Origin: a phage
Length of the DNA stretch: 64,000 bases
Strand: one strand, 5' to 3'
Sequence record: PX393110.1
Below, piece by piece: positions 36,566 through 57,832 of this stretch. The translations under genes and the position numbers were made by a program. Each line of letters begins with the position of its first letter. Positions within the stretch are counted from its first letter, which is position 1. The notes below the pieces were generated by a model. That model was not told the DNA's origin. It saw only the letters and a program-made list of their open reading frames with translations, and did not search any database.

Positions 36566-36572
36566 GTGACTT

Positions 36573-38071: not shown

Positions 38072-38073
38072 GT

Positions 38074-38733: not shown

Positions 38734-38737
38734 GTTC

Positions 38738-39109
38738 ATGATGGTTCAGCCAATTTATCGAGATATAGACCAGACTCTTAAGCGTAACTCGCTTAAGGAT
38801 GGTGATGCAGTATTTCAGTCCATAGTTAATGTACTGAAGACTCGCAAAGGTACCAGAATGTTTAATATGGAGTTTGGTTCTAATCTCGAAGATATCATCA
38901 TGGAACCATGCGACGATATAACTGGTCTGCAGGTTTACGCAGAGGTGGTCGACGCTGTTACGAGATGGGAGCCAAGAGCCCTGTTAGACAGAGGTAAAAC
39001 TAAGGTTACTCCTGATCCGGATAATCACATATTCTGGGTAGACTTATGGTTCTCTGTTAAAGGAATCGATGGTCAAGAATTTAACTATGAGGTGGGTCTG
39101 AAACGATGA
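38738..39109 (+). CDS. Baseplate wedge protein (gp25 / gpW-like)
   Basis: 123 aa from the ATG at 38738; KGTRMFNMEFGSNLEDIIMEP resembles the GPW/gp25 core motif; the track start lies inside the upstream gene. Confidence 0.5.
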   Translation: MMVQPIYRDIDQTLKRNSLKDGDAVFQSIVNVLKTRKGTRMFNMEFGSNLEDIIMEPCDDITGLQVYAEVVDAVTRWEPRALLDRGKTKVTPDPDNHIFWVDLWFSVKGIDGQEFNYEVGLKR

Positions 39110-40479: not shown

Positions 40480-41950
40480 GTTCAACACTCTAGATTACTT
40501 CTCTCCTAACCTTAGAGGGAACGAGTTATATAAGTTCTTCTCGCAGGTGCTGGATCATGGTCTAGAGACTGTTGTCTTTCCGGAGATGGATAAAAATACG
40601 GCGATTTATGATCCTAGTAAACCGTCGTATGATCCGATTTACATCCTGGAGCTACTGGGTCAACCAGACTTAGCAGATCTCATAACTACCGAGGTAGACC
40701 AGAACTCAGTATCTGTACTCCTCCCAAGTATCCTAGATAATAAGGGTATGAAGGATGGGGTTGATCTTATCTTTAAACTGATAAATGTAGAGATAGACGA
40801 GATCCTGTATCAGAAGACTCCGGAAGGGTGCTCACTAGCAACCATCCTGCTTCCTAAGAACGTGATCTTGTCTACTCGACAAATTAAGCTAATTGATCGT
40901 CTGTCGCGTAAGGTATTTCCGATATGCGTCAGACTTACCGGTATCGCTAACTGTCTTCCAGATGGTGTTGAGTCTCTCGGAAGCGCCTCGCTGGACACCA
41001 GCTGGTTGTTGGACACATCAATCCTGGATGGTTCGGTAGGTATACGAGTACCTGATATTTCAGATACTCTATGGTTAAGATTCTGTCTCGACATTATGTC
41101 AGAGATGGAAGTACCTCTTGAAGTGCTGATTGATCGCTTCTCGGATCGTCTGATTAACTCTTATCTGACCGTATTCGACAGAAGAACTATCAGATTGGAT
41201 AATGGTCTTATTCTGGACATGGGTACGTACTATGATCTCCAGAATACTGACACTACTCATAGCAGGCTTTATAGCTCATTAGCTGAGTTTAATGTCGATT
41301 TAAGCACCGACTCTAGAACTACCGAGATTGAGTCCTTACTGGACTTATCAGACCTGGTAGCTGGTCTGGAGTTTAAGTCCTCTATGCTGCGTGAGATCTT
41401 CCTATTCTTGGATATCGACCTCTCAGAGTTCGGATTCGGGAATTACATGGATAGGAAGATAGAGCACTTATCCAAGGGGATAGAGCAAGTAAATTACGGC
41501 TATGAGGGTGGTAATTACGCTGATGGTTACGATTTAACTAACTATCAGAGTTTCGAATACGAGAACTTATACGTAATCCAATCTCATCATGATGGCCAAA
41601 CTCAGCGTAGCGGGATGGCTTATTACGGATTGCCGGAAATAGACTGGCTACACTTCGAAGGTATGGACTTCATTAATGGGTCTTACCTGCTGGATGGTAC
41701 TCGCTATCTTCACCAGGAGTTCATTAAAAAGATCAAAGTGTACGATTGGTATACTCATTGGTCTAGCTACCGAGAAGCTATGTTCCTAACCACTCATAAG
41801 ACCGAAAGACTCTTAGAGAAACGGGATGGGACTATTCTCCATGACGGAACTTATAATCGCGGTGAGAAAGTAACTCGTTACGGATTCGAACCTCTGTACA
41901 ACGACGTTATTAGTCACGATGATACTTACTATCGCGATGCCAATCTATAG
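40457..41950 (+). CDS. Baseplate/tail fibre-associated protein (start uncertain among ATGs at 40457, 40466, 40472)
   Basis: 497 aa; position between baseplate genes and fibre genes. Confidence 0.4.
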   Translation: MRGMSMAKFNTLDYFSPNLRGNELYKFFSQVLDHGLETVVFPEMDKNTAIYDPSKPSYDPIYILELLGQPDLADLITTEVDQNSVSVLLPSILDNKGMKDGVDLIFKLINVEIDEILYQKTPEGCSLATILLPKNVILSTRQIKLIDRLSRKVFPICVRLTGIANCLPDGVESLGSASLDTSWLLDTSILDGSVGIRVPDISDTLWLRFCLDIMSEMEVPLEVLIDRFSDRLINSYLTVFDRRTIRLDNGLILDMGTYYDLQNTDTTHSRLYSSLAEFNVDLSTDSRTTEIESLLDLSDLVAGLEFKSSMLREIFLFLDIDLSEFGFGNYMDRKIEHLSKGIEQVNYGYEGGNYADGYDLTNYQSFEYENLYVIQSHHDGQTQRSGMAYYGLPEIDWLHFEGMDFINGSYLLDGTRYLHQEFIKKIKVYDWYTHWSSYREAMFLTTHKTERLLEKRDGTILHDGTYNRGEKVTRYGFEPLYNDVISHDDTYYRDANL

Positions 41951-41958
41951 GTGATTAG

Positions 41959-42726
41959 ATGAGCAATTATACTGGGGCATTTAACTTCCCTGCTCAGGTG
42001 TACCAATTTGAAGAGAGTGATGTGGTTAAAGGTGGTCCGGACGGCGTTGATAACGTGCCTCTTACCCAGCTTTCCGACCGTACGTTTTATCTTAAGGCTC
42101 TTGCAGATTTCACATTCCTTAAGCTGTTCAATCTGAACCCTCTCGGATCATTCAAAGAAGGATTCCAGATTAACGTGGCTGGGTATGCAGTCTTCGACGA
42201 GGCCTCCGGTAAGTGGTTTAAGTGGACAGGATCTCTGCCTAAAGTGGTGGTTAAGTCTTCTAAGCCCGAAACTACTGGCGGTATCTATGATCCGGTCACT
42301 AATCCGAGCGGTAAGTGGGTGGCTATTGACTTCAGTGTTCTAGACCTTGGCGCTGGGGTTAAGATCCCTACAGCAGCTGCTCTTGGTAATCTGTATAGCG
42401 GTAAGTACAATCCTGCCTTCGTTAAGATTGAGAATGTCTCCAATCTGGACATAGCAGAAGCTACATATACCCGACTCGGGAATGTAGTTACTGTTAATGG
42501 CAAGATCACTGCTTCTGCTACTGATGCTGGAGAAGTAATGAAAATCGGAATTGGCTTACCTATTAACTCTACCTTCTCAGATGACTCAAGTCTCTCAGGA
42601 GTTGGTGTTGGTGTAGTAGCTGGTCAGATTTATGCCGATGTGGACAGTAGCGTGGCTGTTCTTGAGATTAATCAGGGTAGTACAGACGAGCTGTCTCTGA
42701 GATACACGTTCTCTTACACTGTATAA
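41959..42726 (+). CDS. Tail fibre protein carrying the shared N-terminal module
   Basis: N-terminal segment (GGPDGVDNVPLTQLSDRTFYL...SGKWFKWTGSLPKVVVKSSKPETTGGIYDP) is shared with the 42739 protein. Confidence 0.55.
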   Translation: MSNYTGAFNFPAQVYQFEESDVVKGGPDGVDNVPLTQLSDRTFYLKALADFTFLKLFNLNPLGSFKEGFQINVAGYAVFDEASGKWFKWTGSLPKVVVKSSKPETTGGIYDPVTNPSGKWVAIDFSVLDLGAGVKIPTAAALGNLYSGKYNPAFVKIENVSNLDIAEATYTRLGNVVTVNGKITASATDAGEVMKIGIGLPINSTFSDDSSLSGVGVGVVAGQIYADVDSSVAVLEINQGSTDELSLRYTFSYTV

Positions 42727-42738
42727 TAGGATATCGAA

Positions 42739-45648
42739 ATGGGTGCTTATCAGGGTAAAAATCAGTACGTAGAGGACATCTATACCTTCGAACGTACTGA
42801 CAAAGTGTCGGGTGGAGATGACGGTATTGATAACGTACCCATTAAGAATCTCACCGACAGAACTACATATCTCCGTAGTTTAGCATTGAATTCATTCCTG
42901 GATATCTATGGGGTTAATCCTGTAGGTACTTTCGGAATAGGGTTTGATCTTCAGGAATCTGGGGACGGAGTGTACGATGAGGTATCTGGCAAATGGTATT
43001 ACTGGCTGGGCTCCTTCCCCAAATCTGTTGCCGAGAACTCATCTCCGGAAGATACTGGAGGTATTTTCGACCCAGAAAGTAATCCTGATGGGTTATGGAC
43101 TGAGGTAATTCCGGTAAACCAGCGTCAGGTGGACATGATAGCTCGGGCATTCAGAGTTAAGACAGAGGAAGTCCAGTTCATGAAAGTAGGTCGTCCTCTC
43201 GACGGCTTTCGTGTACTGTATGACTTAACTTCTCAGGAAGCCTATCGTTTGCCGATGGATATTCCAGAAGGATCAACTGTCGTCAGTCTAACAGCTGGTG
43301 GATGGCTCGTACACAGCAATGGTGGGGTGGACTTATCTGCCTATGCTGTTGAATTAGAAGAGTACAAGCACTTTACTGGGGGAGACTTCAGTACTGGCTT
43401 TACTCTACGTCAGAACCACTGCGTAGTTATGTATGACGGTGTTATGTATCGCTGGGATGGGGATTTTCCTAAAACAGTAAATGACAACAGTACTCCCGAA
43501 GAAGATGGTATCGGTGAAGGTAAATGGGTGGCGGTGGGTCCAAATTCCAAATTGCTTTATAACATTACCTGGGATGGATCATATCCAGATCAACCAGTTA
43601 TGGACGACCGCACCCAGAGATTAAATCTACCACTACCGGTTCAAACTAATAAACTGGTGGATGACGTTGTACGTCTGCGCGAGACCATTTCAACTCTGGA
43701 CGAGAAGGTGGCTACCGTTGGAAACGATGGTAAGATCCCGGTCGAGCAGATCCCAGCAGTAGCTATAACTGAAACATTTCCTGTCTCGAGCCAGGATGAG
43801 ATGTTGGCTCTCAATGCCCAGAAGGGAGACATTGCCATCCGTGACGACAATAGCCTGAGCTACATTCTGATGAATGAGCCAGCTTCCACGTTGGAAAACT
43901 GGAAGAAGTTCAAGAATGACGCTCTGGTGCAGTTAGGTAAGAACGGCGGTGTGAATCTGGTTAGTGGAGCTATCCATGCAGCCACGGATCAGGATTCACT
44001 TACTTTCGAGAACATAACAATTTCCGGTGAAGTATATAGTCACGACCCTAGCATATCTGGATTGGTTGAAGGATTCTCTGTCTATAACGGTAATTTATAT
44101 CTCACTCGCAATCAGATATCTTACAAGCTGTTGTCCAAAAGAAATAAGTTGCGCTGGCCTGGTCTGTACCTCTCTGGTGTAACTGATATGAAATCTTCGA
44201 TTGAGGCCATTATGAGCCATGGCCTCCACGTTGATCTTGATGGGAATGCTATCAGCGTATCTACCTTAAATATCACCAAAAATCTTTATAATGGTGAAAT
44301 CATTGCTACTGGAGATACCGGCTCGTTCATTACTGTGAACTCGTGCAAGCTGCTTAGAACCAGGATCAACTGTAACAATAAGGCTATACGCCGTGCTGTG
44401 CATCTGAAAACTGGTTCAATCCGTCCTACTTTGAAAAACACTGAGATTTTTGACAGTTCCGGAGCTACTAATGCAAATGGTGTCTTTATTGACGCGAATA
44501 ACATCACCGATTTCCTAGTAGAGGGCGTGTATGTCCATAATCTCACCTCTGTAGCTAATGGATCACAGGGAGATGCAGATGGTCCGTGCCGTGGGATTAT
44601 CGTTGGCACGGCTCTTGACCCAGCGCCATCTGAGGCCACGGTATCTAGCGGAGAAATTAATAATGTACGTATCCGCGACTTGGCACCTTTCGAGGACTGC
44701 GATGGTGTTGTGGTTCAGATTTACGATGCCTCGTCTGTAATGCTTAGAGCATCTAAAATCCGCGTCAAAAACGTTGATACTCACAATGTCAGGAAGAGAG
44801 CCGTCAAGATTCAGGCGAACGATGTCACCGTGAGCAACGTCTATGCTTATTGCGATACAACCGATACAGCAATGTATTCAATCGTCAGTCTATATGGTGA
44901 TAATGGGTATGCTGAGAATGTCACCGGACGAGGACGCATCAGTAATGGCATAGATTGCGCTTACGGCTTCAACAGAGTTAGCACACTTCACCTTAAAACC
45001 GAACGCACGGGTGCCGATACCCTTGCTGGGATTGGAGCAGGGTTGCTTATCAACTCCGGGCAAGTGGAAGCCAGTGGTATCTATTCCGAAGGTGCGGAAT
45101 ATGTTCTTGCTATCAGGGATGCCCTTGGCGTGACACCTTACGTCAAAGTCTCTGGTCTTCGCGGGCAGGGTTACAGCGGAGTGGCTCGTTTCCAGATACG
45201 AGCCGGAAACTCTATCGGCAGCGTTTACATTGACGACGTTTCGGCAAATTCCTCGGCAACAAATAAATCGGCGATATCCGTAGACATAACGTCCAATGGA
45301 ATAGGACTGGTAAATATCTCGGACGTGAAACGACTAAGTCAGCCATTCACCGGAGCAGACATTAATATGTCTGGGGCTGTCACGGAGGCAATTTTCCGCG
45401 ATTGTATTCTAAATTCTGGAAGCTCTACTGTTGGTATTTCCATGGCAACAGGAAAACTGACTGTTGAGAATATCAGTGCCCCTAGTAAGACGTATGCAGT
45501 TCAAGCTGTTCAGACGAGTAATTCATGGCTGAATAATATCGACGGAATAGTGCGTCTTGAGAATACGGCGAACACCAGACTTGGCCTCTATCGCGGAGTT
45601 TCTTCAGCTGGCACAAACACTGGTCTTCTCACGTTGAATTATGCGTAA
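42739..45648 (+). CDS. Tailspike protein (969 aa) with shared N-terminal module and beta-helix-like C-terminal region
   Basis: N-terminus GGDDGIDNVPIKNLTDRTTYL...SGKWYYWLGSFPKSVAENSSPEDTGGIFDP; long repetitive region consistent with a depolymerase-type spike. Confidence 0.55.
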   Translation: MGAYQGKNQYVEDIYTFERTDKVSGGDDGIDNVPIKNLTDRTTYLRSLALNSFLDIYGVNPVGTFGIGFDLQESGDGVYDEVSGKWYYWLGSFPKSVAENSSPEDTGGIFDPESNPDGLWTEVIPVNQRQVDMIARAFRVKTEEVQFMKVGRPLDGFRVLYDLTSQEAYRLPMDIPEGSTVVSLTAGGWLVHSNGGVDLSAYAVELEEYKHFTGGDFSTGFTLRQNHCVVMYDGVMYRWDGDFPKTVNDNSTPEEDGIGEGKWVAVGPNSKLLYNITWDGSYPDQPVMDDRTQRLNLPLPVQTNKLVDDVVRLRETISTLDEKVATVGNDGKIPVEQIPAVAITETFPVSSQDEMLALNAQKGDIAIRDDNSLSYILMNEPASTLENWKKFKNDALVQLGKNGGVNLVSGAIHAATDQDSLTFENITISGEVYSHDPSISGLVEGFSVYNGNLYLTRNQISYKLLSKRNKLRWPGLYLSGVTDMKSSIEAIMSHGLHVDLDGNAISVSTLNITKNLYNGEIIATGDTGSFITVNSCKLLRTRINCNNKAIRRAVHLKTGSIRPTLKNTEIFDSSGATNANGVFIDANNITDFLVEGVYVHNLTSVANGSQGDADGPCRGIIVGTALDPAPSEATVSSGEINNVRIRDLAPFEDCDGVVVQIYDASSVMLRASKIRVKNVDTHNVRKRAVKIQANDVTVSNVYAYCDTTDTAMYSIVSLYGDNGYAENVTGRGRISNGIDCAYGFNRVSTLHLKTERTGADTLAGIGAGLLINSGQVEASGIYSEGAEYVLAIRDALGVTPYVKVSGLRGQGYSGVARFQIRAGNSIGSVYIDDVSANSSATNKSAISVDITSNGIGLVNISDVKRLSQPFTGADINMSGAVTEAIFRDCILNSGSSTVGISMATGKLTVENISAPSKTYAVQAVQTSNSWLNNIDGIVRLENTANTRLGLYRGVSSAGTNTGLLTLNYA

Positions 45649-45653
45649 CAGTG

Positions 45654-45673
45654 CCCCCGCTGCTTGGCGGGGT
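45654..45673 (+). terminator. Possible terminator or structural hairpin after the tailspike gene
   Basis: CCCGC-TGCTTG-GCGGG hairpin immediately after the stop; no clear U-run. Confidence 0.3.
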
Positions 45674-45863
45674 CCCACCAACCGGAGGTCAACTACACTT
45701 ATGAATAAGGTATCCATAAAGTTTAGTAGCCTGATTTATGGCAGGTTCACGCTATCTACAAAAAGTGAAAATCATAGTCATAATGTAGGTGATTATGATT
45801 TTAACCAAGAGGAACTTACTCTCTGGTTTGGGAATTAGTATATAATATATTATAGGTGAATAA

Positions 45864-48848
45864 ATGTCTTATAATCCGATCTTAGAAGGATCAACCTGGC
45901 CGGAGACTATTCGTCGCTTAGAAAAGACGGATAGGGCGGAAGGTGGGCCACTAGTTACTAATTCTGAGGATGAACCAGTATCTGGACATATTAATCATCC
46001 AATAACTCAGTTAGCTACCAGAACTTCCATTTTAAAAAAGTATAATTTATCGATAATTAATAACACTAAAGAACAGTGGAAATTATTACTCGGTGACTTA
46101 GGACTAACTCTTGTTGGTACTTTTGAAGAAGGCGCTACTACTAACAGCAAGACTGATGCTGTTTGGCATATTGCTGGTGGTCAGTGTTACGTGTGGGGTG
46201 GTTTACTCCCTAAGACTGTATATGCTAACTCCACACCGCTAACTACTGGTGGTATCTCTGCTGATGCTTGGGTTAGTATTGGTGATGCCGCACTGCGAGG
46301 GCAAATATCAGACCCGGACGGTGCGACAAAATACCCTGAATTGCAGATTGCTAGATGGCGTGACACTTTTGACCCTCGCGGTTGGGGAGCTAAAGGTGAT
46401 GGATTAGTTGATGATACTGTGGCTCTTAATAATCTGTTAAACGCTGCGCCAGTGGGTCAGAAAATTAATGGTAACGGTAGAACCTATAAAGTATCTGTGC
46501 TTCCAGATATTAGCCGATTCGTCAACACTCGTTTCGTTTATGAGCGTATTCCTGGCCAGACGCTTTATTATGTGTCTGACGAGTTTGTTCAGGGTGAGTT
46601 AATTAAAATAACCGACACGCCTTATTACAATGCCTGGCCGCAGGATAAAGCGTTCGTTTACGACGATGTTATTTACTGTCCGTTCATGGCTAGCGATCGG
46701 CACGGGGTTAGCAGGCTGCATGTATCCTGGGTTCGCTCAGGTGATGACGGACAGACCTGGACGACCCCGGAGTGGCTAACCGACCTGCACCCTAATTACC
46801 CGACAGTTAACTATCACTGTATGAGTATGGGTGTGATGCGCAACCGCCTATTTGCGATGATTGAAACCCGTACATTGGCATCTAACGCACTGGTGACTTG
46901 CGAGTTATGGGATCGGCCCATGTCCCGTAACTACCATCCGACAGGTGGCATCACAAAAGCCGCCAACCAGCCTGTGGCTGTAATTACCATCCCTGAACAC
47001 GGTCTTTTTGCTGGGGATTTTGTTAACTTCTCAAACTCTGGGGTGACTGGCGTTTCAGGGAATATGACTGTAACTTCAGTTATTGACCGCAACACGTTTA
47101 CAGTTACCACGCCAAATCAACAAGCATTCGACCAAAATAACTCTACCAGCCGCTGGCATATGGGGACATCGTTCCATCAGTCACCATGGCGTAAAACCAG
47201 CCTTGGATTGATCCCCATGGTTACCGAGGTTCACAGTTTTACCGCCATCAATAACGATTCATTCATGATGGGATATCACCAGGGTGATGTTGCTCCGCGT
47301 GAAGTCGGTATGTTGTATTTTCCGGATGCGTTCAACAATCCTGGGCTTTATCAGAAACGGCATATTCCTGCTGAATATGAGCCAGATGCGGCAGAACCCT
47401 GCGTTAAGTATTTTGACGGTGTTCTTTATGTTGTAACCCGTGGAACCAGGTCTGATCGTCTTGGTAGTTCTCTGCATCGCAGTAGCGACCTGGGGATTAC
47501 CTGGCAATCACTGAGGTTTCCGAATAACGTCCACCACTCTACCCTGCCATTCGCTAAGGTAGGAAACGAACTGATTCTTTTCGGCACCGAACGCGCCGAC
47601 AACGAGTGGGAAGCAAACGCACCGGATCAACGATATTTCAGTTCTTACCCACGGACGTTCTACACGAGAGTGAACCTCGACACCTGGAACCTGAATAATA
47701 CTCAGTGGGTAAATATCACTGATCAGATTTATCAGGGTGGTATTGTTAACTCTGGCGTCGGTGTCGGATCGGTCGTCGTGAAAGATAGTTATATCTATTA
47801 CATGTTCGGTGGGGAAGACCATCTGAACCCATGGACATATGGAGATAACTTAGAGAAAGACCCATTCAAATCAGACGGTCATCCCTCAGATTTGTATTGT
47901 TACAAAATGCAGATCGGTCCAGACAATCGTGTTTCTCGTGATTTCAGGTACGGTGCTGTACCTGACAGAGCGGTTCCAGTGTTTTTTGATACGAATGGAA
48001 TTCGCACTGTTCCTGCGCCTATGGAGTTCACCGGTGATTTAGGGTTAGGTCATGTGACCATTAGAGCCAGCACCAGTAATAACGTTCGCTCTGAAGTTTT
48101 AATGGAAGGTGAGTATGGGTTTATTGGGAAATCTGTACCTACTAATAACCCAGCAGGACAGCGCACCATATTTTGCGGTGGCGAAGGAACCAGTTCTTCT
48201 ACTGGTGCACAGATTACGCTTTATGGTGCTAATAACACAGCTTCTCGCAGGATAGTTTACAACGGAGCTGAGCATCTGTTCCAGACTGCTGACGTTAAGC
48301 CTTATAACGATAACGCGATTGCGCTCGGTGGGCCTAGCAACCGATTCACTACTGCATACCTCGGAAGCAACCCTATTGTTACTTCTAACGGGGAGAAGAA
48401 AACAGAGCCGGTATTTTTTGACGATGCTTTTTTAGATGCTTGGGGCGACGTTCATTACATCATGTACCAGTGGTTGGATTCTGTACACTTGAAAGGAAAT
48501 GACGCTAGAATTCATTTTGGCGTAATTGCTCAGCAGATCCGCGATGTATTCATTGCTCACGGTCTGATGGATGAGAATAGCACGGATTGCCGCTATGCCG
48601 TTCTGTGTTACGACAAATATCCTCGCATGACAGACATGGTGTTCTCTCACAATGAAATCGTTGAACACACTGACGAGGAGGGTAATGTAACTACCACGGA
48701 AGAACCTGTATACACCGAGGTGGTTATTCACGAAGAGGGTGAGGAGTGGGGTGTGCGGCCTGATGGAATTTTCTTTGCTGAGGCAGCATTCCAGAGAAGA
48801 AGACTGGAGAGAATCGAAGCCAGACTTTCCGATCTTGAAAAGAAATAG
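45864..48848 (+). CDS. Endosialidase-like tailspike with C-terminal intramolecular chaperone domain
   Basis: 994 aa; N-terminal W-G-P-K module variant (GQCYVWGGLLPKTVYANSTPLTTGG); two Asp-box (BNR) repeats SGDDGQTW and SSDLGITW; C-terminal DDAFLDAWGDVHYIMYQW...IHFGVIAQQIRDVFIAHGL typical of peptidase S74-type chaperone domains. Confidence 0.65.
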   Translation: MSYNPILEGSTWPETIRRLEKTDRAEGGPLVTNSEDEPVSGHINHPITQLATRTSILKKYNLSIINNTKEQWKLLLGDLGLTLVGTFEEGATTNSKTDAVWHIAGGQCYVWGGLLPKTVYANSTPLTTGGISADAWVSIGDAALRGQISDPDGATKYPELQIARWRDTFDPRGWGAKGDGLVDDTVALNNLLNAAPVGQKINGNGRTYKVSVLPDISRFVNTRFVYERIPGQTLYYVSDEFVQGELIKITDTPYYNAWPQDKAFVYDDVIYCPFMASDRHGVSRLHVSWVRSGDDGQTWTTPEWLTDLHPNYPTVNYHCMSMGVMRNRLFAMIETRTLASNALVTCELWDRPMSRNYHPTGGITKAANQPVAVITIPEHGLFAGDFVNFSNSGVTGVSGNMTVTSVIDRNTFTVTTPNQQAFDQNNSTSRWHMGTSFHQSPWRKTSLGLIPMVTEVHSFTAINNDSFMMGYHQGDVAPREVGMLYFPDAFNNPGLYQKRHIPAEYEPDAAEPCVKYFDGVLYVVTRGTRSDRLGSSLHRSSDLGITWQSLRFPNNVHHSTLPFAKVGNELILFGTERADNEWEANAPDQRYFSSYPRTFYTRVNLDTWNLNNTQWVNITDQIYQGGIVNSGVGVGSVVVKDSYIYYMFGGEDHLNPWTYGDNLEKDPFKSDGHPSDLYCYKMQIGPDNRVSRDFRYGAVPDRAVPVFFDTNGIRTVPAPMEFTGDLGLGHVTIRASTSNNVRSEVLMEGEYGFIGKSVPTNNPAGQRTIFCGGEGTSSSTGAQITLYGANNTASRRIVYNGAEHLFQTADVKPYNDNAIALGGPSNRFTTAYLGSNPIVTSNGEKKTEPVFFDDAFLDAWGDVHYIMYQWLDSVHLKGNDARIHFGVIAQQIRDVFIAHGLMDENSTDCRYAVLCYDKYPRMTDMVFSHNEIVEHTDEEGNVTTTEEPVYTEVVIHEEGEEWGVRPDGIFFAEAAFQRRRLERIEARLSDLEKK

Positions 48849-48968
48849 TAAATAAAGCTTTTTTACCGTAGGTAGGGGGGCTTCAATTTAAGATTTAACT
48901 TAAACCAATTACCACTCTAAAGTTACTAAGTATTTGTACATCATGTAATATTTTTATGGAGATCACCA

Positions 48969-51590
48969 ATGGGCGGTCGTTCTAGGTTATTTAGCGAACT
49001 GGGCGGAGCTCCTCTTAATACTTATCAGCATGATAATCAGACTCTCGATATTCGCGAGTTAGAGAGTCAGCAGAAAGTATTAGACGAGACTCTTGCCGAA
49101 ACAATCGGCGATGTTAGCGAACTACAGCAGACTGCTGGACAGTCTATGTATATCCTCGGTAACTACGCTGCTGGAATGGTGATCGAGAACGACCGCCAGT
49201 ACGTCAGACATGAGAATCTGCTGTACTACTGGACTGGTCCTGTACCGTTTACCACTACTGGTAACTTCTACGAAGAATCCTACTGGACTGGTGGGGTGCA
49301 GAGTGGTATCGAATGGAGCTACGAAGTACAGGAAGATGGTGAGTTTGAGTTTGAAGTACCATACTCCTTCACCAGCGTACGCCTGTTCGTGGGTGGCGCT
49401 CGCCTTACTCGCGTAGAAGATTACACTATCGATGTGATTAATCGCAAGATCACTCTGACTAAGATTAAACTGTCGAAGGGCGTCCTGGTAACTGCCGAGC
49501 TGAATTCTCGTGATGCTCTCAGCGTTACCCAGGATCGCATCGATAGCCTTACCAGAGAGATCTCAGAGAAAGTAGGCTTTGTTAACTACAAACTTACTGA
49601 TCTGTCGGAAGGTCAGAGCCTTACCCTAACTACCAGAGTTCAGACTGTAAGCTTCTCACTAAATGGGGAGTATTACAAATGGGATGGTGTTCTTCCTAAA
49701 GTCGTTAACTATGGAGATCCGGAACCAGCTCAATCTGAGCAGGGTACTGGTAAGTGGATTCCTGTAGGTTCTGGCGCCTTGAAATCAGAACTGGGCAAAG
49801 TCAGCGACACTACTGGAGCGGTTCTTGTAGCTCTACCACAAGGCGGTAACGTGGCGAACGGTATTCGCTATGTAACTCCCGAAATGGCTGGTGCTAAAGG
49901 AGATGGTACCACTGATGACACCACAGCCGTTCGTAACGTTGTAGCTCTCGCCAAATTAACTGGTCTTAAAATCACCGGTGGAGCGAACTATAAGATCTCG
50001 AATGCTTCAATCGATATCTCTGGTACTGTCATTGAGAACCTACGTCTTAAAGGAAGTGGGTCTAGCTCTATACTGCTAGTTAATGGCAATACTGCCATAT
50101 CTAATCTAACCCTAAATAGGGTAGGTATTAGACACACTAACGGTATCTTAAACCTGGACAAATTTGAGATCAATGACTGTAGTGCTACTGCGGCTATTTT
50201 AAGCCTTCAGCTAACATCACCTGGACAAATATTTCTCACCAATGGTGTTATGCGTCGTTGTAATTACGGTTACCTTCGTCAGGGATCTCCAGCTTCTTCC
50301 CAGCCGCTGACTACTTCATTACTTCGGAATTTACAATTCTTCGATATGAAGGGTGATCCAATCGAGATCAATCTGGCGATAGCTGATACCAACACTACTA
50401 TCGATCAAATAACCATAGATAACGTGGACTCCACAGCTACCGGGAATACTAACTGGGGTATTGCTATAGGCTTAGCTGGGATGGGTAACTACTCACCCAC
50501 TGCCGCAGACTCAGAGTACATGTCTGATGTAACCATAAGTAATATTAAGATTACCGGAGCCAAACAGTGTCTGCACTTGGAGAAATGCAGAAACATTAGA
50601 ATCAGAAATATCGACATACATCCGGATTCCACTAAGTCAACCGGAGTTGGGTTGGATACTGGTGGTTTCATAGCTTATGGATGTAAAGAGATATACGTGG
50701 ATGGTGTAACTGGGTCTCCAACCAACGGAACGGAAGATATGATTCGTTTCGCTTGGGGATCTGTTAACAATGCGTTTACCTTCGCTCATCGAAATGTGCA
50801 CTTAAGAAACGTCAATGTAACAGGTACTGTTAAAGTGGAGGTTAGCTGTTCTGATACCCTAGCTTCGACTGTAGAGATGAGAAATATCAATGCAACAACG
50901 ATATCTCTCCAAGGCATGGCGTCTGAATACCAGCTGTCAGATTGGTCCGCTGAGAAGATGGTGTTGGATTTCAGATATGTTAGCGGAGATGCTAGAGATA
51001 ATTACCGTAGAAATGCGTGGTCAATTGCTACCATCAGTAATTTGAAATGCCTGAATTCTAACACTGGCGCTCCTGAGGTTACTGTACAGAACATCACTGT
51101 GGATACATTGGAAGTTTCTGGGTGTAACTTCCCTATCCAGAAGACTTTAACTGCTACCCATTGGAGAGGAACTCCTGCATGGCGGCAGAATGGTATTATT
51201 TACCACTCTAAGACCGGAACTCCTTATGGCATGGCTCTTCTTGCTGGTGACACTATCGTTGCTAGTGACGGAACTATGTTCACGGTGACCTCCCCTGGAG
51301 CTCTGTTCTACTCAAACGAAACTGTTGCGGCCGCTACTGCTGGGTCTAACGCTATTCGTTCTAAAACTAACCTTAACTGGACTGGTCAGTATTATAAGAC
51401 TGCTGGGTGTAAGGTTAAAATAGCAGGAGGTGGAGGTGCTGACGGCTCTGATTACATCGGTACTATTGTCCGCAGTGGTTATATTAACAGTGGTAATTAC
51501 TACTTTGATGTTTACCCACCACTTCAGTCTAACGTACCTGATGGCGCAGTATTAACTTCCGTAGAAGTACCAGCCTTTAAAACAGTTTAA
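48969..51590 (+). CDS. Tailspike / tail fibre protein (873 aa), beta-helix-like
   Basis: W-G-P-K motif (YYKWDGVLPKVVNYGDPEP); repeated short beta-rung-like segments. Confidence 0.5.
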   Translation: MGGRSRLFSELGGAPLNTYQHDNQTLDIRELESQQKVLDETLAETIGDVSELQQTAGQSMYILGNYAAGMVIENDRQYVRHENLLYYWTGPVPFTTTGNFYEESYWTGGVQSGIEWSYEVQEDGEFEFEVPYSFTSVRLFVGGARLTRVEDYTIDVINRKITLTKIKLSKGVLVTAELNSRDALSVTQDRIDSLTREISEKVGFVNYKLTDLSEGQSLTLTTRVQTVSFSLNGEYYKWDGVLPKVVNYGDPEPAQSEQGTGKWIPVGSGALKSELGKVSDTTGAVLVALPQGGNVANGIRYVTPEMAGAKGDGTTDDTTAVRNVVALAKLTGLKITGGANYKISNASIDISGTVIENLRLKGSGSSSILLVNGNTAISNLTLNRVGIRHTNGILNLDKFEINDCSATAAILSLQLTSPGQIFLTNGVMRRCNYGYLRQGSPASSQPLTTSLLRNLQFFDMKGDPIEINLAIADTNTTIDQITIDNVDSTATGNTNWGIAIGLAGMGNYSPTAADSEYMSDVTISNIKITGAKQCLHLEKCRNIRIRNIDIHPDSTKSTGVGLDTGGFIAYGCKEIYVDGVTGSPTNGTEDMIRFAWGSVNNAFTFAHRNVHLRNVNVTGTVKVEVSCSDTLASTVEMRNINATTISLQGMASEYQLSDWSAEKMVLDFRYVSGDARDNYRRNAWSIATISNLKCLNSNTGAPEVTVQNITVDTLEVSGCNFPIQKTLTATHWRGTPAWRQNGIIYHSKTGTPYGMALLAGDTIVASDGTMFTVTSPGALFYSNETVAAATAGSNAIRSKTNLNWTGQYYKTAGCKVKIAGGGGADGSDYIGTIVRSGYINSGNYYFDVYPPLQSNVPDGAVLTSVEVPAFKTV

Positions 51591-51614
51591 TAGATTAAAC
51601 TGAGGAGATTATTG

Positions 51615-53066
51615 ATGTCCACCCAATTGCCAGATAGTCTGCAGCCAAGCAGCCTTAAGTATAAAGGTGACTATGCGGCTGGTATTTACCTTAACGGAAA
51701 CCACTGCATCCTTCGCTTTGTACGCACTGATGGTAAGAAGGTGTTGGTTAAGTGGGTGGGGGAAGTCCCCCACACCACCGACGGCGAGACTCCGTATACC
51801 GATACCGACCAAACTACTCTTAAAGCTGGTTACGAGCTCTTCTCCCAGACGAATGCAGTAGACTTCATTATTTCAATGTTCAGTTCCTCCACATCCTGGC
51901 GCTATATCGGCCAGGTTAACTCTGTGGAAGATCTGAAGACTATCACTCCTAAGGATGGCGATCGAGTGATAGTTAAAGGCTACTTCGGGGAAGGTACTCC
52001 CGGAGGTGGTGAGTTCCGAGTTAAGACTACCAATGACTCTATTCCTTCGGACAGTAAGGATGTAGTCAATGGTTGGGTACGAGTTCGTCGTAGCAAGGAG
52101 TATCACGCTACCGAGTTTGGTGCTGTTCCTGATAAGTTAACTGACTCTACTGGTCAGGTTCAGGATATGCTCACTACTATCACCACTGGTCTGGCTATAA
52201 TTGATCCTGGTGTTAAGTATACCCTAGCTAACTTAACTATCAAGCCTGGCGTCCAGATTCTGGATATGTCTGGATGGGACGGTAGTTCATGGACGGCTGC
52301 AGTGAGATTCATCAGTAACTCTACTGATGGGTTGATAATCTCTTCTGCATCCAATGCTAACCTTAACCTCAACAGTAACAACGGGTTAGCCAGAGCTAAG
52401 GTATCTTACAGCGTAAGCGGAACTAAGATCTGGGAATCGGGTATGAGCGATGACTCTAACCGAGACTGGCATGTTCTTCGAGGATCTGAGTCTCGTTACC
52501 GTGTGGTATCTGCTTCCCAGGCTCACGCATGGAACAGAGATACCATAGTTGAAGGTGTCGATTACCACTACGGTAAGAGAGCATCTGAGAATCATGTTCT
52601 TCGCTACGATGCAGTGAGTACTGGCTATGATATCATTCATACCTATTACCACGGTACCACTCTCACCTCTAAGATAACCCATAAAGGCGATGGATCAGTA
52701 ATCCTGACCCAGAATGGTAAGGATACCATCAAGATAGTAGATGGTGTAATGACTGGTGCCCTGAAGAAGATCATCACGTCTACAGCTAACGTAACTCTTA
52801 CTGCAGCTGATACTGGTGCTATTTGCACTACTGATGGTGCCACTTCTTCGGTTACCATTACCCTGCCAGTAGCTGTTCCTGGTATGACCTATGATGTACT
52901 CGTAGGTGCCAACTACAGCGTATCAGTGAAAACTGGCGGTACAGATCTCTTCCGTAATGGGAACGCTACTGTTTCTAACTCGGATAAGGGATCCTGGTTA
53001 CGCTTAGTTTGCGCTATCTCCGGTTACTGGGAGATGGATACTGTTCAGGGTACCTGGGCAAGTTAA
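51615..53066 (+). CDS. Tail fibre protein (484 aa)
   Basis: ATG at 51615 with GAGGAG RBS (the track begins 3 nt earlier at a TTG); Ser/Thr/Gly-rich fibre-like composition. Confidence 0.45.
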   Translation: MSTQLPDSLQPSSLKYKGDYAAGIYLNGNHCILRFVRTDGKKVLVKWVGEVPHTTDGETPYTDTDQTTLKAGYELFSQTNAVDFIISMFSSSTSWRYIGQVNSVEDLKTITPKDGDRVIVKGYFGEGTPGGGEFRVKTTNDSIPSDSKDVVNGWVRVRRSKEYHATEFGAVPDKLTDSTGQVQDMLTTITTGLAIIDPGVKYTLANLTIKPGVQILDMSGWDGSSWTAAVRFISNSTDGLIISSASNANLNLNSNNGLARAKVSYSVSGTKIWESGMSDDSNRDWHVLRGSESRYRVVSASQAHAWNRDTIVEGVDYHYGKRASENHVLRYDAVSTGYDIIHTYYHGTTLTSKITHKGDGSVILTQNGKDTIKIVDGVMTGALKKIITSTANVTLTAADTGAICTTDGATSSVTITLPVAVPGMTYDVLVGANYSVSVKTGGTDLFRNGNATVSNSDKGSWLRLVCAISGYWEMDTVQGTWAS

Positions 53067-53082
53067 TTAAACGGAGACTACT

Positions 53083-53904
53083 ATGTCCTTTATGGTATTG
53101 GCCGAAAGTGGCCACATAGCTTTAGCTAAAACGGTGCATGATGCAAATCTGCACTTTGCATGGGGCACCATCCCAGATGCTGTAGCTGCTCCAGAAACCA
53201 TGTCTGCCTCCGCGGTAGATGGTGGTACTCTGGATCCTGCCACGTATACTTATGTGGTTACTGCAGCCAACAAATTCGGTGAAACCACCGCATCCATGGC
53301 TGCTACTGCTACTATCGTTGCTTCGGCTTCTCAGCAGTCTATTCAGTTAAACTGGGGTGCATCTGCGAATGCTGAGAAATACATCATCTATCGCCAGGGC
53401 ACCAACTCCTATGATAAAATTGGTGAGTCTACTTCTAATACTTTTACTGATAACGGCAGCACTACTCCAGATAGCTCGGTTAATCCTCCTACGACGAACA
53501 CTACATTCCCGTCTGCATGGACTAAACCAGCACCTAACCCGGACCCGTCGCTACCTGATATGTATGCTGAAGTCGGACGCCGTAAGATCCTCACCAAGGA
53601 ATATGTGAAACAGGATCCTAATGGTACCATCGAGACTTCAGAAGGAAAGTGGTCTATCTCCGATAAGCCAACTAAGCATCTGTATCTGCATGTTCAGTTT
53701 AACTATACTGATGCTCCAGATGACATGATCTACCAGTTCGCTATCTTCATAGGGACTGTACCTACTGATGGTAATGAGAATGCTCTTTACCTCACCCCAG
53801 ATATGATTAAGGAAAAGGGAGAGATGCTCGGAATTGAGAACCATACCCTGATTATTCGTGAGTCCACTACCCGCGAAGGTCATTCCGTCATCCTCACGTT
53901 CTAA
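53083..53904 (+). CDS. Tail fibre-associated protein with an FN3-like segment
   Basis: 273 aa; YTYVVTAANKFGETTAS...QSIQLNWGASANAEKYIIYRQ resembles a fibronectin type III beta-sandwich. Confidence 0.35.
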   Translation: MSFMVLAESGHIALAKTVHDANLHFAWGTIPDAVAAPETMSASAVDGGTLDPATYTYVVTAANKFGETTASMAATATIVASASQQSIQLNWGASANAEKYIIYRQGTNSYDKIGESTSNTFTDNGSTTPDSSVNPPTTNTTFPSAWTKPAPNPDPSLPDMYAEVGRRKILTKEYVKQDPNGTIETSEGKWSISDKPTKHLYLHVQFNYTDAPDDMIYQFAIFIGTVPTDGNENALYLTPDMIKEKGEMLGIENHTLIIRESTTREGHSVILTF

Positions 53905-53915
53905 CGGAGTAATAA

Positions 53916-56900
53916 ATGGCAACTTTACCGTCTGATTACTTTAACAGATTCGCGGCTAAGAAGAACTATGCCAAGCATCTGTTTATCGCGGACAGACCGC
54001 TCCAGAGCTCGGAGCTAAATGAAATTCAGGATCAGCAGCTCAATAACGTCTCTACACTGTCCGGCTTCTTGGTCGGTGATGGTGCCATTACTGATGGGGC
54101 GGATATTTCCGCTCTTGGGGACGGTGTGATCTCTATCACTGAGGGTACGTTAATCTATGCCGGTATGGCTATGAACGTACCCGCTGTTACGGATGCATCG
54201 TTCCCGACTGCTGGAGAGGCTGTTTTAGGTGTATCTATCTCTGATAAGGTAATCACCTATCTCGATGATCCTGAGCTTCTCATGCAGTATCAGAACTCTC
54301 CGAGCTATGGTTCAGCTGGTGCTGACCGTCTCCAGAAGGTGACTACTTGGCTGTTAGCCGATGATGTCCCAGAGGGAGATACCTTCTTCCCAGTATTCTA
54401 CTTCAAGAATGGCGTACTGGTAAAAACCACTAAGTCTCGTAACGATCTCGACCAGTTCTCTGGTCTTCTGGGTCGCTACGACTCTGATACCCATGGTAAC
54501 TACGTACTGGATGGCCTTACTCTGTCCTATGCAGGTATCGATGGTTCCACCCAGCAGATCATGTTGAACATGGCTGCGGGCAAGGCTCGTGTACTTGGCA
54601 ACGAAGCACTGTTCGCCTATGAAAGTACCGTGCGTCTGGACCCTATCAACGATACCGGTAACGTAGCTTCCGAGCCGTATGTGTTTACAGCAGGTACTTA
54701 TACCTATCAATTGCGCTACTCTGTAATTGATCAGGTAACTGCTGTTTCTGGTACTAAGCAGGTAACTCGTACGGTAACTCATGGCTCCGCAACGGGTTCG
54801 TCTGACTTACTTCCGGATACTCCTGTTCTGCAGATTATTTCTGTGCAGCAGGGTGGTACTGTCTACGTTAAAGGTAGTGACTATGTACAGAACGGGGACT
54901 CTGTAGACTGGTCACCTACTGGTAACGAACCATCTCCTGGTTCTACTTATCAGGTTACGTACCAGTACATTGACCAGTTCATCCCGACCTGGAACGATAC
55001 CTCTATCACTATTTCCACCAGTGATGCTCTGGTATCTGGGTCTACGTTCTACGTAACCTACTCTTACTTCCTGTCTCGCTATGACCGTGTATCTATCGAT
55101 GCCTCCGGCGCGGTGCAGATTACTAAGGGTATTCCAGCAATCCTGGCGAATGCTCAGTTGCCAGGTACTTCCGCTACGTTGCTGTCCATTGCAACTATTC
55201 GTCTGACTAAAGGTCAGGATCCGGTCATCAACAATGATCGTATCGAAGTAGTTACTTATAATGAGCTGAAAGATCTGATGTCTCTGGTAAGCGACATGCA
55301 GTACAACATCGCCCAGCTTTCGCTTCGTGATGAAACTCGCTCTACCGATCCGACTACGACTAAGAAAGGTGTGGTAGTTGACTCTCTGCTTAACGGTAAC
55401 ATGCGTGATGATGGTCTTACCAACAACGCCATCGTTGATGAAGGTCAGCTGTTCATCGGAGCATCTTTCTCTCGTCAGTCTAGCCTGGCTCCTGATGGTC
55501 TTATGTTATCGTTTACCGATACCGTAATTCAGTCTCAGGAATTCCGTACCAAGGATACTCGCATCAACCCGTATGCTGGTTCCGGCCAGGTACCTCAGGC
55601 GATGATCTCTGTGTCTCCAGCTAAGATCGATACTCGTGGCTTCTGGTCGTACTTCCATGGTGGATTCCTGCCAGTGGATACTACGATTACGATTAAGCTG
55701 TCTGGGTATGCTGCTAATGAGCAGATTGATCTTACGTTCCGTAACCTCGCAGTGGTTACCTTGGTTGCGGATGACAACGGTACAGCACAGTATGCTCATA
55801 TGCTATCTGGTGGCTTGATTAACGGTACGTATCAGTATGTTGCTACCGGTAAGACTACTAAGGCTGTGACTCGCGGTACAGTAACCATCTACAACTCCGG
55901 TAGGGTCGACTACGGTCAGAACTGGACTGGTGGTGCTGTGCCATGGGGTTACGACCCAGTAGCTCAGACTTTCACTATCCAGGCTACTCGTGATATTAAC
56001 GCAGTGTCTATCTACCTAACTGAACTGCCTACTAACACGCTCCAGATTAAACTGGTTCCGACTAAGGTCGGTATTCCGGACTCTACCCAGCTTTACGGCT
56101 TCGGTGAAGTTCCGGCTAATAAATGCGTGCTGGGATGGAACAAGATCAATCTTCGTTATCCAGTAACGGTAACTGGCGGTACTGAGTACTCCATCATCGT
56201 CGCTACGGCTAACTATCAGGGTAAGGTGGCTACAGCTAAGATTAACGGGTACGATACCGATAAGAAACAGTATGTAGTGAATCAGCCAGCGCAGGGTGTA
56301 CTGTTAACTTCTGCGAACGAATCTACCTGGTCTCCGGTTCAGGATGAAGACTTGATGTATCGTCTCCATGCCACTAACTATGGCTCTACCCGTACCGTGA
56401 ACTTAGGTTCTGTAACAGTAGCTAGCAATACCAACAGTCTGTCACTGACTGCTGATATTGAGACTCCGGCAAATACCTCCGTGAGATTCTACCTCACTAA
56501 CGGTACTGATAACATTAACCTCAACGTTAACTCTGAAACGTACACTGAGAACTTCTCTGGTACTTTCAGTCTGATGGCAGAGTTTAATACTGGTGATCCT
56601 ACTGTATCTCCGAAGGTCTTCGGTGGCGTCATCTTCCGTTCTGGCACTACTGATACTCCTGGGGTATATACCCAGCGTCAGTTCAGTATTCCTAACGGTA
56701 ACGTTACTCCGGTAACGCTTAACGTCATCCTGGATCAGTATGTGCCATCTGGTGCCAGCGTAACTGTTCAGTACCAGAATGGTAGTAACTGGGTAGCCTT
56801 GACTGGGGGCACCGGAACCGCTCTGGGAGATGGGTGGTATACCGTACCTTACAAACTGTCAGGAGTCAATGTGGCTAATACCCGCATCCGTATCATCCTG

Positions 56901-56960: not shown

Positions 56961-56969
56961 GGAGTAAAC

Positions 56970-57146
56970 ATGTCTAGCAACGAACCATGGTTCAAGACTG
57001 GATTCGAAACCGAGATACCGGCCGTAGCGCCGGTAAACTCAATCTTCCAGTCCTTACAGGGTAAAAGATGGAGATTTGATGGCCAGGGATGGGTCGAAAT
57101 AGAGTCTCTACAGGCGGCTCTCCAGAGAAAACAGGCTCAGAAATGA
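56970..57146 (+). CDS. Small protein (58 aa), below the ORF-track threshold
   Basis: ATG at 56970 preceded by AAGGAGTAAAC; translation MSSNEPWFKTGFETEIPAVAPVNSIFQSLQGKRWRFDGQGWVEIESLQAALQRKQAQK; fills the gap between the fibre and endolysin genes. Confidence 0.4.
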   Translation: MSSNEPWFKTGFETEIPAVAPVNSIFQSLQGKRWRFDGQGWVEIESLQAALQRKQAQK

Positions 57147-57170
57147 GTCTTAACTAGGTAGGGGTATAAT

Positions 57171-57818: not shown

Positions 57819-57832
57819 TATGGTGATCAATA

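Follow-up and report, generated by a model that had tools for sequence, protein, structure and literature searches.

A 64,000-nt stretch of phage DNA (hereafter the window), a relative of the rare myovirus vB_EcoM_IME392, contains a gene that very probably encodes a functional endoNF-type endo-alpha-2,8-sialidase tailspike of an IME392-like E. coli myovirus, modular in build and vertically inherited since the split from IME392. The case is built on direct observation of the domains, conserved residues, synteny, and module borders of the gene, together with its composition and dN/dS. The gene is real and, judged by homology, almost certainly functional, with a predicted product that degrades the K1 capsule. 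As a virion-borne spike, this product would bind and depolymerise the alpha-2,8-polysialic acid of the K1 capsule, allowing the phage to reach the outer membrane. The gene and its flanking features are listed in Table 1.

Table 1 Features of the endosialidase tailspike gene and its flanks (window coordinates)
Feature	Coordinates	Strand	Properties and evidence
Upstream 215-bp spacer	45649..45863	+	GC 0.39; no IME392 counterpart up to 45846
7-bp G+C hairpin, 6 nt past stop of upstream 969-aa tailspike gene	45655..45672	+	-15.5 kcal/mol; z only -0.75; U-run absent
14-bp A/U-rich hairpin or inverted repeat, 62 nt 5' of ATG	45768..45802	+	z -5.3; repeat search, folding
TATAAT hexamer	45841..45846	+	No matching -35; not called a promoter in consensus scan
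Shine-Dalgarno-like AGGTGA, 4 nt 5' of ATG	45854..45859	+	Sequence; IME392 similarity begins at 45847
Endosialidase tailspike precursor gene (predicted)	45864..48848	+	ATG start; 994 aa + stop; ORF list, Pfam, PDB matches
Putative lineage-specific virion or branch anchor	45864..46097	+	aa 1-78; GC3 0.30; EP_H11 comparison
Tail_spike_N (PF18668)	46116..46286	+	aa 85-141; Pfam, 55.7 bits
5' junction of DNA module common to K1F (from 46265) and YX22 (from 46244)	46244..46265	+	At conserved AWVSIGDAALR motif; alignment
Endosialidase N-terminal extension (PF12218)	46389..46589	+	aa 176-242; Pfam, 116 bits
Catalytic six-bladed beta-propeller (PF12217)	46590..47915	+	aa 243-684; Pfam, PDB, K1F alignment
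Asp-box 1, SGDDGQTW	46737..46760	+	aa 292-299; motif search
Beta-barrel inserted in propeller (PF12195)	46923..47171	+	aa 354-436; Pfam, 136.8 bits
Asp-box 2, SSDLGITW	47481..47504	+	aa 540-547; motif search
Stalk, triple beta-helix (PF12219)	47922..48383	+	aa 687-840; Pfam, 256.9 bits
C-terminal intramolecular chaperone (Peptidase_S74)	48384..48845	+	aa 841-994; Pfam, PDB 3gw6, K1F alignment
Ser841 codon, nucleophile of predicted autocleavage site T840/S841	48384..48386	+	K1F alignment; K1F record; PMC3742443
Downstream 120-bp spacer	48849..48968	+	GC 0.30; conserved with IME392; last 23 nt also with EP_H11
13-bp hairpin with G-U pairs, directly 3' of stop	48855..48883	+	z -3.5; tail T-rich but interrupted

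Domain content and predicted activity

The complete set of four endosialidase Pfam domains is found in the 994-aa product (End_beta_propel, E 9e-204; End_tail_spike, 1e-76; End_beta_barrel, 2e-40; End_N_terminal, 5e-34), along with Tail_spike_N (E 5e-15) and Peptidase_S74 (2.5e-8). The propeller match reaches 676.7 bits (cut-off 24) and covers profile positions 1 to 366 of 367. In a PDB search, the endoNF chains 1v0e and 3gvl from phage K1F match with E=0 over aa 171/176-840, and aa 171 to 994 are 79% to 94% identical to solved structures. An earlier reading made from the sequence alone had described a 994-aa tailspike with the beta-propeller of an endosialidase and, at its C-terminus, an intramolecular chaperone; the gene is indeed a single ATG-initiated open reading frame of this length, and the Pfam matches, PDB matches, and K1F alignment all bear out the functional call. 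By these similarities, the product belongs to the endoNF-type endosialidases, a well-known protein type. It comprises four modules: an anchor (aa 1 to ~78), Tail_spike_N (aa 85 to 141) with a linker, an endosialidase unit (aa 176 to 840), and the chaperone (aa 841 to 994). In the endosialidase unit, the N-terminal extension is followed by the six-bladed propeller, which contains both Asp-boxes and the beta-barrel insertion, and then by the triple-beta-helix stalk.

From the linker onwards, the domains follow one another as they do in EndoNF, gp17 of Escherichia phage K1F (1v0e, 3gvl, 3ju4; C-terminal domain 3gw6). The two proteins share 78% to 79% of amino acids over the N-terminal extension and propeller, 92% over the stalk, and 94% over the C-terminal domain, while the two genes are only 78% identical at the nucleotide level. 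The key catalytic residues of the K1F enzyme are H350, R549, E581, R596, and R647 (PMC13564897), all of which are identical in the window protein (H280, R479, E511, R526, and R577). K1F residues Q330, D331, H527, S528, K585, and N699 are likewise conserved, as are R837, S848, and Q853 of the stalk (R767, S778, and Q783 here). Both previously proposed Asp-boxes fit the strict S-x-D-x-G-x-x-W pattern (aa 292 and aa 540), which arises 0.008 times per sequence in shuffled proteins. Each domain has a dN/dS of 0.03 to 0.13 in comparisons with phages IME392, YX22, UE-S5a, and K1F (0.03 in the propeller). We predict the activity, its specificity (O-acetylated K1, K92), and the cleavage from 79% to 96% identity to the characterised enzyme and close relatives; the low dN/dS of the propeller also enters the prediction of a homotrimer with alpha-2,8 endo-cleavage.

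The S74-like C-terminal domain is confirmed by a Peptidase_S74 (PF13884) match at aa 852 to 901 (34.5 bits, cut-off 22) and by the endoNF C-terminal domain structure 3gw6 (E 3.4e-174 over aa 720 to 994), and 144 of its 154 residues (94%) are identical to those of K1F. The cleavage serine had been considered not obvious by eye; on the K1F alignment it is plain, at T840/S841, with the context NPIVT/SNGEKK here and NPIVT/SNGERK in K1F. The GenBank record of K1F places the mature peptide boundary at 910/911 (mature gp17*, residues 2 to 910; C-terminal domain, 911 to 1064). A Ser-Lys catalytic dyad has been described for the chaperone domain (PMC3742443), and its S-x4-K spacing is retained at the domain boundary, where S841 and K846 are the counterparts of S911 and K916 in K1F. 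The chaperone domain would drive trimerisation and folding of the stalk, and the Ser841/Lys846 dyad would then cut at T840/S841, freeing a fragment of ~17 kDa and leaving an 840-aa mature spike. Release of the chaperone after trimer folding is a prediction from sequence, and for this tailspike we infer enzymatic activity, autocleavage, trimer formation, mode of attachment, and a K1 host alike.

Virion anchor, relatives, and module borders

The receptor-binding protein at the equivalent position in phage EP_H11 has an N-terminus 52% identical to aa 1 to 60 and a different distal part. A structure search with aa 1 to 78 found no solved relative, the databases contain next to no relatives of this anchor, and a word-indexed search with aa 1 to 140 returned one weak match only. 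The nearest full-length matches to aa 15 to 140 are tailspikes of Justusliebigvirus and Phapecoctavirus, at ~40% amino acid identity. The region of aa 85 to 141 matches the structures of CBA120 TSP1, 3, and 4, and the neighbouring 255-, 969-, and 873-aa products likewise bear Tail_spike_N. The domain is present both here and in the adjacent tailspike genes, the pattern of branched multi-tailspike complexes of the CBA120, G7C, and phi92 type, whose tailspikes bear it towards their N-termini. The endosialidase is probably one of at least three tailspikes in a branched receptor-binding apparatus and may dock on another tailspike or on the baseplate through its N-terminus, for which the similarity of aa 1 to 60 to the EP_H11 protein is indirect evidence. 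None of the three tailspike proteins has an exact match in a collection of 15 billion proteins.

Similarity to K1F is absent before aa ~80. At its N-terminus the K1F protein has a particle-binding domain like that of T7 gp17, ~150 aa long; the window spike, unlike K1F, has the 78-aa lineage-specific anchor and belongs to a myovirus of the ~110-kb class with several tailspikes. Phages YX22 (Ackermannviridae, Aglimvirinae) and UE-S5a (Schitoviridae, Gamaleyavirus), each of which also encodes several receptor-binding proteins, have closer copies of the enzyme (96% amino acid identity in the propeller, 94% to 97% in the stalk and C-terminal domain, 87% to 88% at the nucleotide level). Their anchors differ and are of their own family's type, with junctions at aa ~127 (YX22) and ~172 (UE-S5a, where similarity joins at 46377). 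The DNA in common with endosialidase genes of other phage families starts inside the reading frame, between 46244 and 46377 (aa ~127 to 134 for the 5' start), and ends at 48856 to 48867, 8 to 19 nt past the stop codon. With these borders, neither of the intergenic gaps flanking the gene is part of the module.

The gene has an orthologue at the equivalent position in IME392 (AXY86125.1 in MH719082, annotated as "putative tail fibers protein" with no mention of an endosialidase), with 96.5% amino acid and 93.5% nucleotide identity, followed by the same downstream spacer and next gene. The host in the IME392 record is given only as "Escherichia coli". Nucleotide identity is 95.4% in the flank on one side and 89.7% over the aligned block 45847-58000 that contains the gene, so that the alignment describes a syntenic gene about as diverged as the surrounding genome. 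Upstream, IME392 differs, with ~5 kb of fibre and tail-fibre-assembly genes in place of the C-terminal two-thirds of the 969-aa beta-helix tailspike and the 215-bp gap. Similarity resumes only at 45847; the upstream gap, having no counterpart in IME392, goes with this variable block (43530-45846), which also takes in the 3' portion of the tailspike gene before it. Compared with the copies in other phage families, dS ranges from 0.3 to saturation (>1.7), giving no sign of recent transfer. The enzyme module and the local anchor were probably joined by recombination at the conserved AWVS(I/V)GDAALR junction before the IME392 split, with vertical inheritance under strong purifying selection since then.

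Composition, flanking spacers, and alternative histories

The sequence-only reading had also held that the gene is compositionally distinct, with more A/T-ending codons than the adjacent fibre genes. For the gene as a whole this fails: GC3 is 0.436, compared with 0.446 in the upstream tailspike gene and 0.411 in the downstream one, z is -0.6 (mean of 54 window ORFs 0.464, sd 0.047), and by codon usage (distance of 0.102 from the remainder of the window) it is the 7th most typical among 24 long genes. A GC3 computation without any difference was the outcome that the sequence-only reading had itself named as refuting it. As a whole, the gene is not compositionally foreign to its genome, and its third-position GC now matches that of the genome. 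The impression of distinctness came from the first 200 codons alone, where it does hold: GC3 falls to 0.28 to 0.33, and when 134-codon windows are slid along all 64 kb (1144 in total), the ten with the lowest values lie here. The IME392 copy has the same AT3-rich 5' part. The endosialidase part has a GC3 of 0.467, equal to the window mean; its counterparts in K1F, YX22, and UE-S5a have lower values (0.365 to 0.428).

The AT3-rich first 200 codons are unaccounted for by simple vertical inheritance and count against the favoured explanation. It is possible, though doubtful, that only this 5' third (aa 1 to ~200, comprising the anchor, Tail_spike_N, and the linker) is foreign, derived from the tailspike of a low-GC phi92-like myovirus and fused to a composition-matched endosialidase module. 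Consistent with this, the Justusliebigvirus and Phapecoctavirus genes nearest to aa 15 to 140 have a GC3 of 0.21 to 0.38, and neither the paralogous N-termini of the neighbouring genes nor the EP_H11 ortholog is AT3-rich. However, ~40% amino acid identity to phi92-like proteins identifies no donor, and aa 135 to 200 are also AT3-rich despite lying within the module common to K1F and YX22. The tailspike N-termini of YX22 (0.27) and of one SFN6B-like contig (0.31) have a low GC3 as well, which may therefore be typical of the domain family and not a mark of transfer.

Both flanking gaps are as AT-rich as had been claimed, against a GC content of ~0.46 for the window. Their description as unusually long is correct for the 18-kb baseplate/tailspike block (39106-56960), where they are the sole gaps above 21 bp, but gaps of 120 to 370 bp are common elsewhere in the window. 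Their isolation in this block, the most AT3-rich stretch of the window in the first ~200 codons, and the movement of endosialidase modules across families (K1F, Autographiviridae; UE-S5a, Schitoviridae; YX22, Ackermannviridae) are the points in favour of the earlier proposal that the gene was recently acquired as a cassette together with both flanks and a foreign A/T-ending codon signature. That proposal is largely refuted and now improbable, given the typical whole-gene codon usage, an endosialidase part at the window mean, module borders that leave the gaps out, an upstream gap that belongs with the neighbouring variable block, synteny with IME392 at genome-typical identity, and the high dS relative to heterologous copies.

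The upstream spacer folds better than shuffled sequences (z -3.1), and the 14-bp A/U hairpin, unique within the window, is equalled by none of 200 shuffles. The previously noted TATAAT hexamer is present, but a sigma-70 and terminator consensus scan of 41.5-58 kb yielded fewer promoter-like sites than shuffled sequence, with no convincing candidate in the two gaps, and no copy of the T4-type late promoter TATAAATA occurs anywhere in the window. Rfam gave no match at E <= 1 in 45-49.5 kb and only two tRNAs in the whole window. The upstream gap has a short reading frame of 65 aa (45641-45838), or of 45 aa if counted from the ATG at 45701; Pfam gave no match to it, nor did tblastn in phages at E <= 1, and it is probably non-coding. 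Searches of the phage collection ("distant" blastn) and of viral contigs (exact-pattern scan) found no homologue of this spacer. Downstream, the hairpin 3' of the stop codon is a candidate for a weak terminator or mRNA end, and IME392 has a hairpin of different sequence at the equivalent site. There is a slight chance that the AT3-rich 5' 600 nt and the structured 215-nt spacer form a functional unit, either a cis-regulatory leader or translational "slow ramp", which would tune expression or co-translational trimerisation of the tailspike, or a recombination hotspot through which the phage lineage could swap receptor-binding modules. Either way, if true, this 5' unit would not be just a neutral relic of mosaic descent.

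Phage phi92 (endoN92, 4hiz), with its multi-tailspike "Swiss-army-knife", resembles the window in being a myovirus with an endosialidase beside another tailspike, although the window backbone is of the IME392/EP_H11 type and not that of Stephanstirmvirinae. A K92-type or dual alpha-2,8/alpha-2,9 specificity like that of endoN92, or a catalytically dead polysialic-acid-binding spike, is very unlikely; K92 was named in the sequence-only reading and the surroundings are phi92-like (the adjacent tailspike, whose IME392 homologue is annotated as colanic acid-degrading, and the anchor), but the enzyme is far closer to endoNF (1320 bits) than to endoN92 (776 bits), with all catalytic residues conserved and strong constraint on the propeller.

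Significance for IME392-like phages

As a predicted endoNF-type tailspike on a local anchor, the gene product has practical value rather than conceptual novelty: it would provide a K1-capsule depolymerase for a rare lineage of ~110-kb-class E. coli myoviruses, where GenBank relatives of the gene carry only the label "putative tail fibers protein". At least four virion anchors that are unrelated to one another carry the endoNF-type module (T7-like, G7C-like, Ackermannviridae, and IME392-like), and the position of the conserved recombination junction is useful in engineering tailspike swaps. E. coli K1 causes neonatal meningitis, sepsis, and urinary-tract infection, so another phage specific for K1, as this one is predicted to be, with several tailspikes would be of some therapeutic interest.

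Domain architecture and predicted autocleavage

The 994-aa product carries the complete endosialidase domain set in Pfam. In the PDB, residues 171/176 to 840 match the crystal chains 1v0e and 3gvl of endoNF, the endosialidase gp17 of phage K1F, at E=0, and the endoNF construct 3gw6, which comprises stalk and chaperone, covers residues 720-994 (E 3.4e-174). A weaker match is the endosialidase 4hiz of phi92 (776 versus 1320 bits for endoNF). Aligned with K1F gp17, the protein is 78-79% identical over the N-extension and propeller, 92% over the stalk, and 94% over the C-terminal domain. The key catalytic residues of K1F from a deep-mutational scan (H350, R549, E581, R596, and R647; PMC13564897) are identical here (H280, R479, E511, R526, and R577). 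The supporting residues Q330, D331, H527, S528, K585, and N699 are also identical to K1F in the alignment. Positions matching K1F R837, S848, and Q853, which we take to be the stalk polysialic-acid binding site, are conserved as well. The endosialidase tailspike function proposed in the sequence-only reading is thus borne out by the Pfam set, the endoNF matches, and the retained catalytic residues, and both of its Asp-box repeats are present (SGDDGQTW at aa 292 and SSDLGITW at aa 540; mean 0.008 motifs per shuffled protein).

The cleavage serine of the chaperone domain, previously described as not obvious by eye, was located by alignment to K1F. In the K1F GenBank record AM084414, residues 2-910 are annotated as mature gp17* and residues 911-1064 as gp17-CTD. 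The aligned context is NPIVT/SNGEKK in the window protein versus NPIVT/SNGERK in K1F, and the predicted scissile bond is therefore T840/S841, with Lys846 five residues on. Endosialidase chaperone domains use a Ser-Lys dyad mechanism (PMC3742443). The C-terminal domain (CTD) differs from that of K1F at 10 of 154 residues. The gene product is predicted to be the precursor of an endoNF-type K1 capsule depolymerase with its autocleavage site intact. It belongs to a very well known kind of tailspike enzyme, with IMG/VR relatives at 65 loci, mostly on ~40 kb contigs.

Features of the endosialidase gene, its flanks, and other parts of the window
Feature	Position	Strand	Remark
Endosialidase ORF, 994 aa, ATG start	45864..48848	+	single long ORF inside 45649-48968
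Shine-Dalgarno AGGTGA	4 nt ahead of ATG	+	
Tail_spike_N	aa 85-141		Pfam
End_N_terminal	aa 176-242		Pfam
End_beta_propel	aa 243-684		Pfam, E 9e-204
End_beta_barrel	aa 354-436		Pfam; insert within propeller
End_tail_spike	aa 687-840		Pfam
Peptidase_S74	aa 852-901		Pfam
Variable block	43530-45846		distal two-thirds of 969-aa beta-helix tailspike + 215-bp gap; unaligned to IME392
Upstream gap	45649-45863		215 bp, GC 0.39
G+C hairpin	45655-45672		right after upstream gene's stop codon
14-bp A/U-rich hairpin/inverted repeat	45768-45802		62 nt 5' of endosialidase ATG; z -5.3 vs shuffles
Downstream gap	48849-48968		120 bp, GC 0.30
13-bp hairpin	48855-48883		start of downstream gap; z -3.5
5' start of shared DNA, YX22	46244		Ackermannviridae
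5' start of shared DNA, K1F	46265		Autographiviridae
5' start of shared DNA, UE-S5a	46377		Schitoviridae
AAAGGCTGTTAA motif ends	1723, 7168, 12375, 13365, 14830, 16062, 16244, 16302, 16909, 18255, 62527, 63602	-	
tRNA-Met (CAT)	14979-15054	-	
tRNA-Arg (TCT)	15200-15276	-	

Neighbouring tailspikes and other elements of the window

Tail_spike_N is also found in the adjacent 255-, 969-, and 873-aa products, and structural matches predict a gene arrangement for a branched, multi-tailspike apparatus like that of CBA120, G7C, or phi92. The 873-aa tailspike (48969-51590) additionally has a sub-threshold End_N_terminal match at aa 309-345. It shares 83% identity with a 'putative colanic acid-degrading protein' of the sister phage vB_EcoM_IME392 (IME392); its first ~200 aa are kept in EP_H11, a second related phage (48% aa), with the remainder swapped. 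Further 3', window positions 53083-56960 encode a 273-aa match to BW3TFN (baseplate wedge 3 tail fibre network component; E 8e-25) and a 1014-aa match to DUF4815 (E 1e-129), conserved baseplate components that follow the variable tailspike genes and are common to IME392 and EP_H11.

Elsewhere, AAAGGCTGTTAA occurs in 12 exact copies on the minus strand (0.3 expected by chance), mostly 10-40 nt ahead of gene starts on that strand and with a CCGCTCTTTTG-like box ~9 nt upstream of every copy; the plus-strand structural block contains none. Motif and box together look like a putative bipartite phage-specific early/middle promoter with an extended -10-like element (TGTTAAAnT). Several promoter-like motif copies and both tRNA genes lie in a 2-kb stretch without an ORF of at least 100 aa. 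The minus-strand ORF at 60514-61137 is collinear with, and equal in length to, the 'putative dCTP deaminase' gene of IME392. IME392 is among the phages with a YerA41-like DNA polymerase that were checked for 5hmdU pathway genes (PMC12686479), and the phage lineage may carry hypermodified thymidine.

Composition of the gene

The gene had been proposed to be a compositionally distinct cassette, richer in A/T-ending codons than its neighbours. Its GC3 is 0.436 (z = -0.6; mean 0.464 and sd 0.047 for the 54 window ORFs), between 0.446 in the upstream 969-aa and 0.411 in the downstream 873-aa tailspike genes. A scaled chi-square comparing its synonymous codon use with that of the remaining window places it 7th most typical among the 24 genes with 250 aa or more. 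Neither proposal is supported; over the entire gene, the result is the one that the sequence-only reading itself had named as refuting it.

Composition is nevertheless non-uniform within the gene. GC3 is 0.28-0.33 in codons 1-200 (45864-46460), and the ten lowest values among 1144 sliding 134-codon windows over all window ORFs come from this stretch. This AT3-rich piece spans anchor, Tail_spike_N domain, and linker; the enzyme is not AT3-rich, with the endosialidase part (0.467) and CTD (0.474) both at the window mean. Homologous parts have lower GC3 in K1F (0.365) and in two other phages with endosialidase tailspikes, YX22 (0.428) and UE-S5a (0.414). The IME392 gene shows the same AT3-rich 5' pattern. 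Low-GC phi92-like phages supply the nearest full-length relatives of the 5' third, in the N-termini of their tailspikes (~40% aa identity), which suggests that this module may have a separate ancestry. Unlike codons ~1-200, paralogous N-termini in the adjacent genes are not AT3-rich. The AT3-rich 5' third of the gene is the sole unexplained feature.

Module boundaries and flanking gaps

Among 50,697 phage records, the only relatives of the window are IME392 (116 kb) and EP_H11 (111 kb). Identity to IME392 is 95.4% across the stretch 36000-43529 and 89.7% across 45847-58000; the two do not align in the variable block, where IME392 instead has fibre and fibre-assembly genes (~5 kb), and the upstream gap is accordingly assigned to that neighbouring block. 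IME392 shares the first 263 aa of the 969-aa tailspike (93% aa) but has other genes in place of the distal beta-helix part and the gap. Shigella phage vB_SboS_Gloob has a beta-helix gene with 65.5% nt identity, the only other similarity to the block. Synteny with IME392 covers the endosialidase gene from 17 nt 5' of the ATG (93.5% nt and 96.5% aa) and the downstream gap. EP_H11 differs in its receptor-binding genes across 41231-53048. Its receptor-binding protein (RBP) at the equivalent position is 52% identical over the N-terminal 60 aa to window aa 1-60, which argues for a putative position-specific docking segment.

Endosialidase genes from other phage families become similar to the window DNA inside the ORF, with the 5' junction coinciding with the conserved peptide AWVS(I/V)GDAALR, and the DNA common to YX22, K1F, and UE-S5a ends at 48856-48867, just beyond the stop codon. 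These limits, and the absence of the upstream gap from IME392, do not support the earlier proposal of a cassette moved with its AT-rich flanks. The dN/dS is 0.03-0.13 for all domains in all comparisons, and dS to copies other than that of IME392 ranges from 0.3 to saturation, which indicates that the exchange is old and that purifying selection is strong. Against K1F, dS in the stalk (47922-48383) is 0.51, far below that of the propeller (46590-47915, saturated) and CTD (48384-48845, 0.88), suggesting that further recombination may have occurred within the module.

The long AT-rich flanks themselves are present as described, as is the upstream TATAAT (45841-45846), although the latter lacks a usable -35 and gave no promoter call in a consensus scan. 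That scan found no convincing sigma-70 site; there was no T4-type late promoter, and neither gap matched an Rfam family. Elsewhere in the 18-kb baseplate/tailspike block (39106-56960), adjacent genes overlap by up to 23 nt or lie at most 21 nt apart, so both gaps are locally exceptional; gaps of 120-370 bp are frequent across the whole window. Folding of the upstream gap beats shuffles (z -3.1) because of its two hairpins. The A/U-rich hairpin occurs once in the window, and no relative of it or of the rest of this gap was found in the collections searched. IME392 has a hairpin at the same downstream place but of different sequence. The three genomes of the lineage all have such spacers around their variable RBP genes. 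Most economically, the gaps can be read as transcript-end or stability hairpins and as recombination seams between exchangeable tailspike genes.
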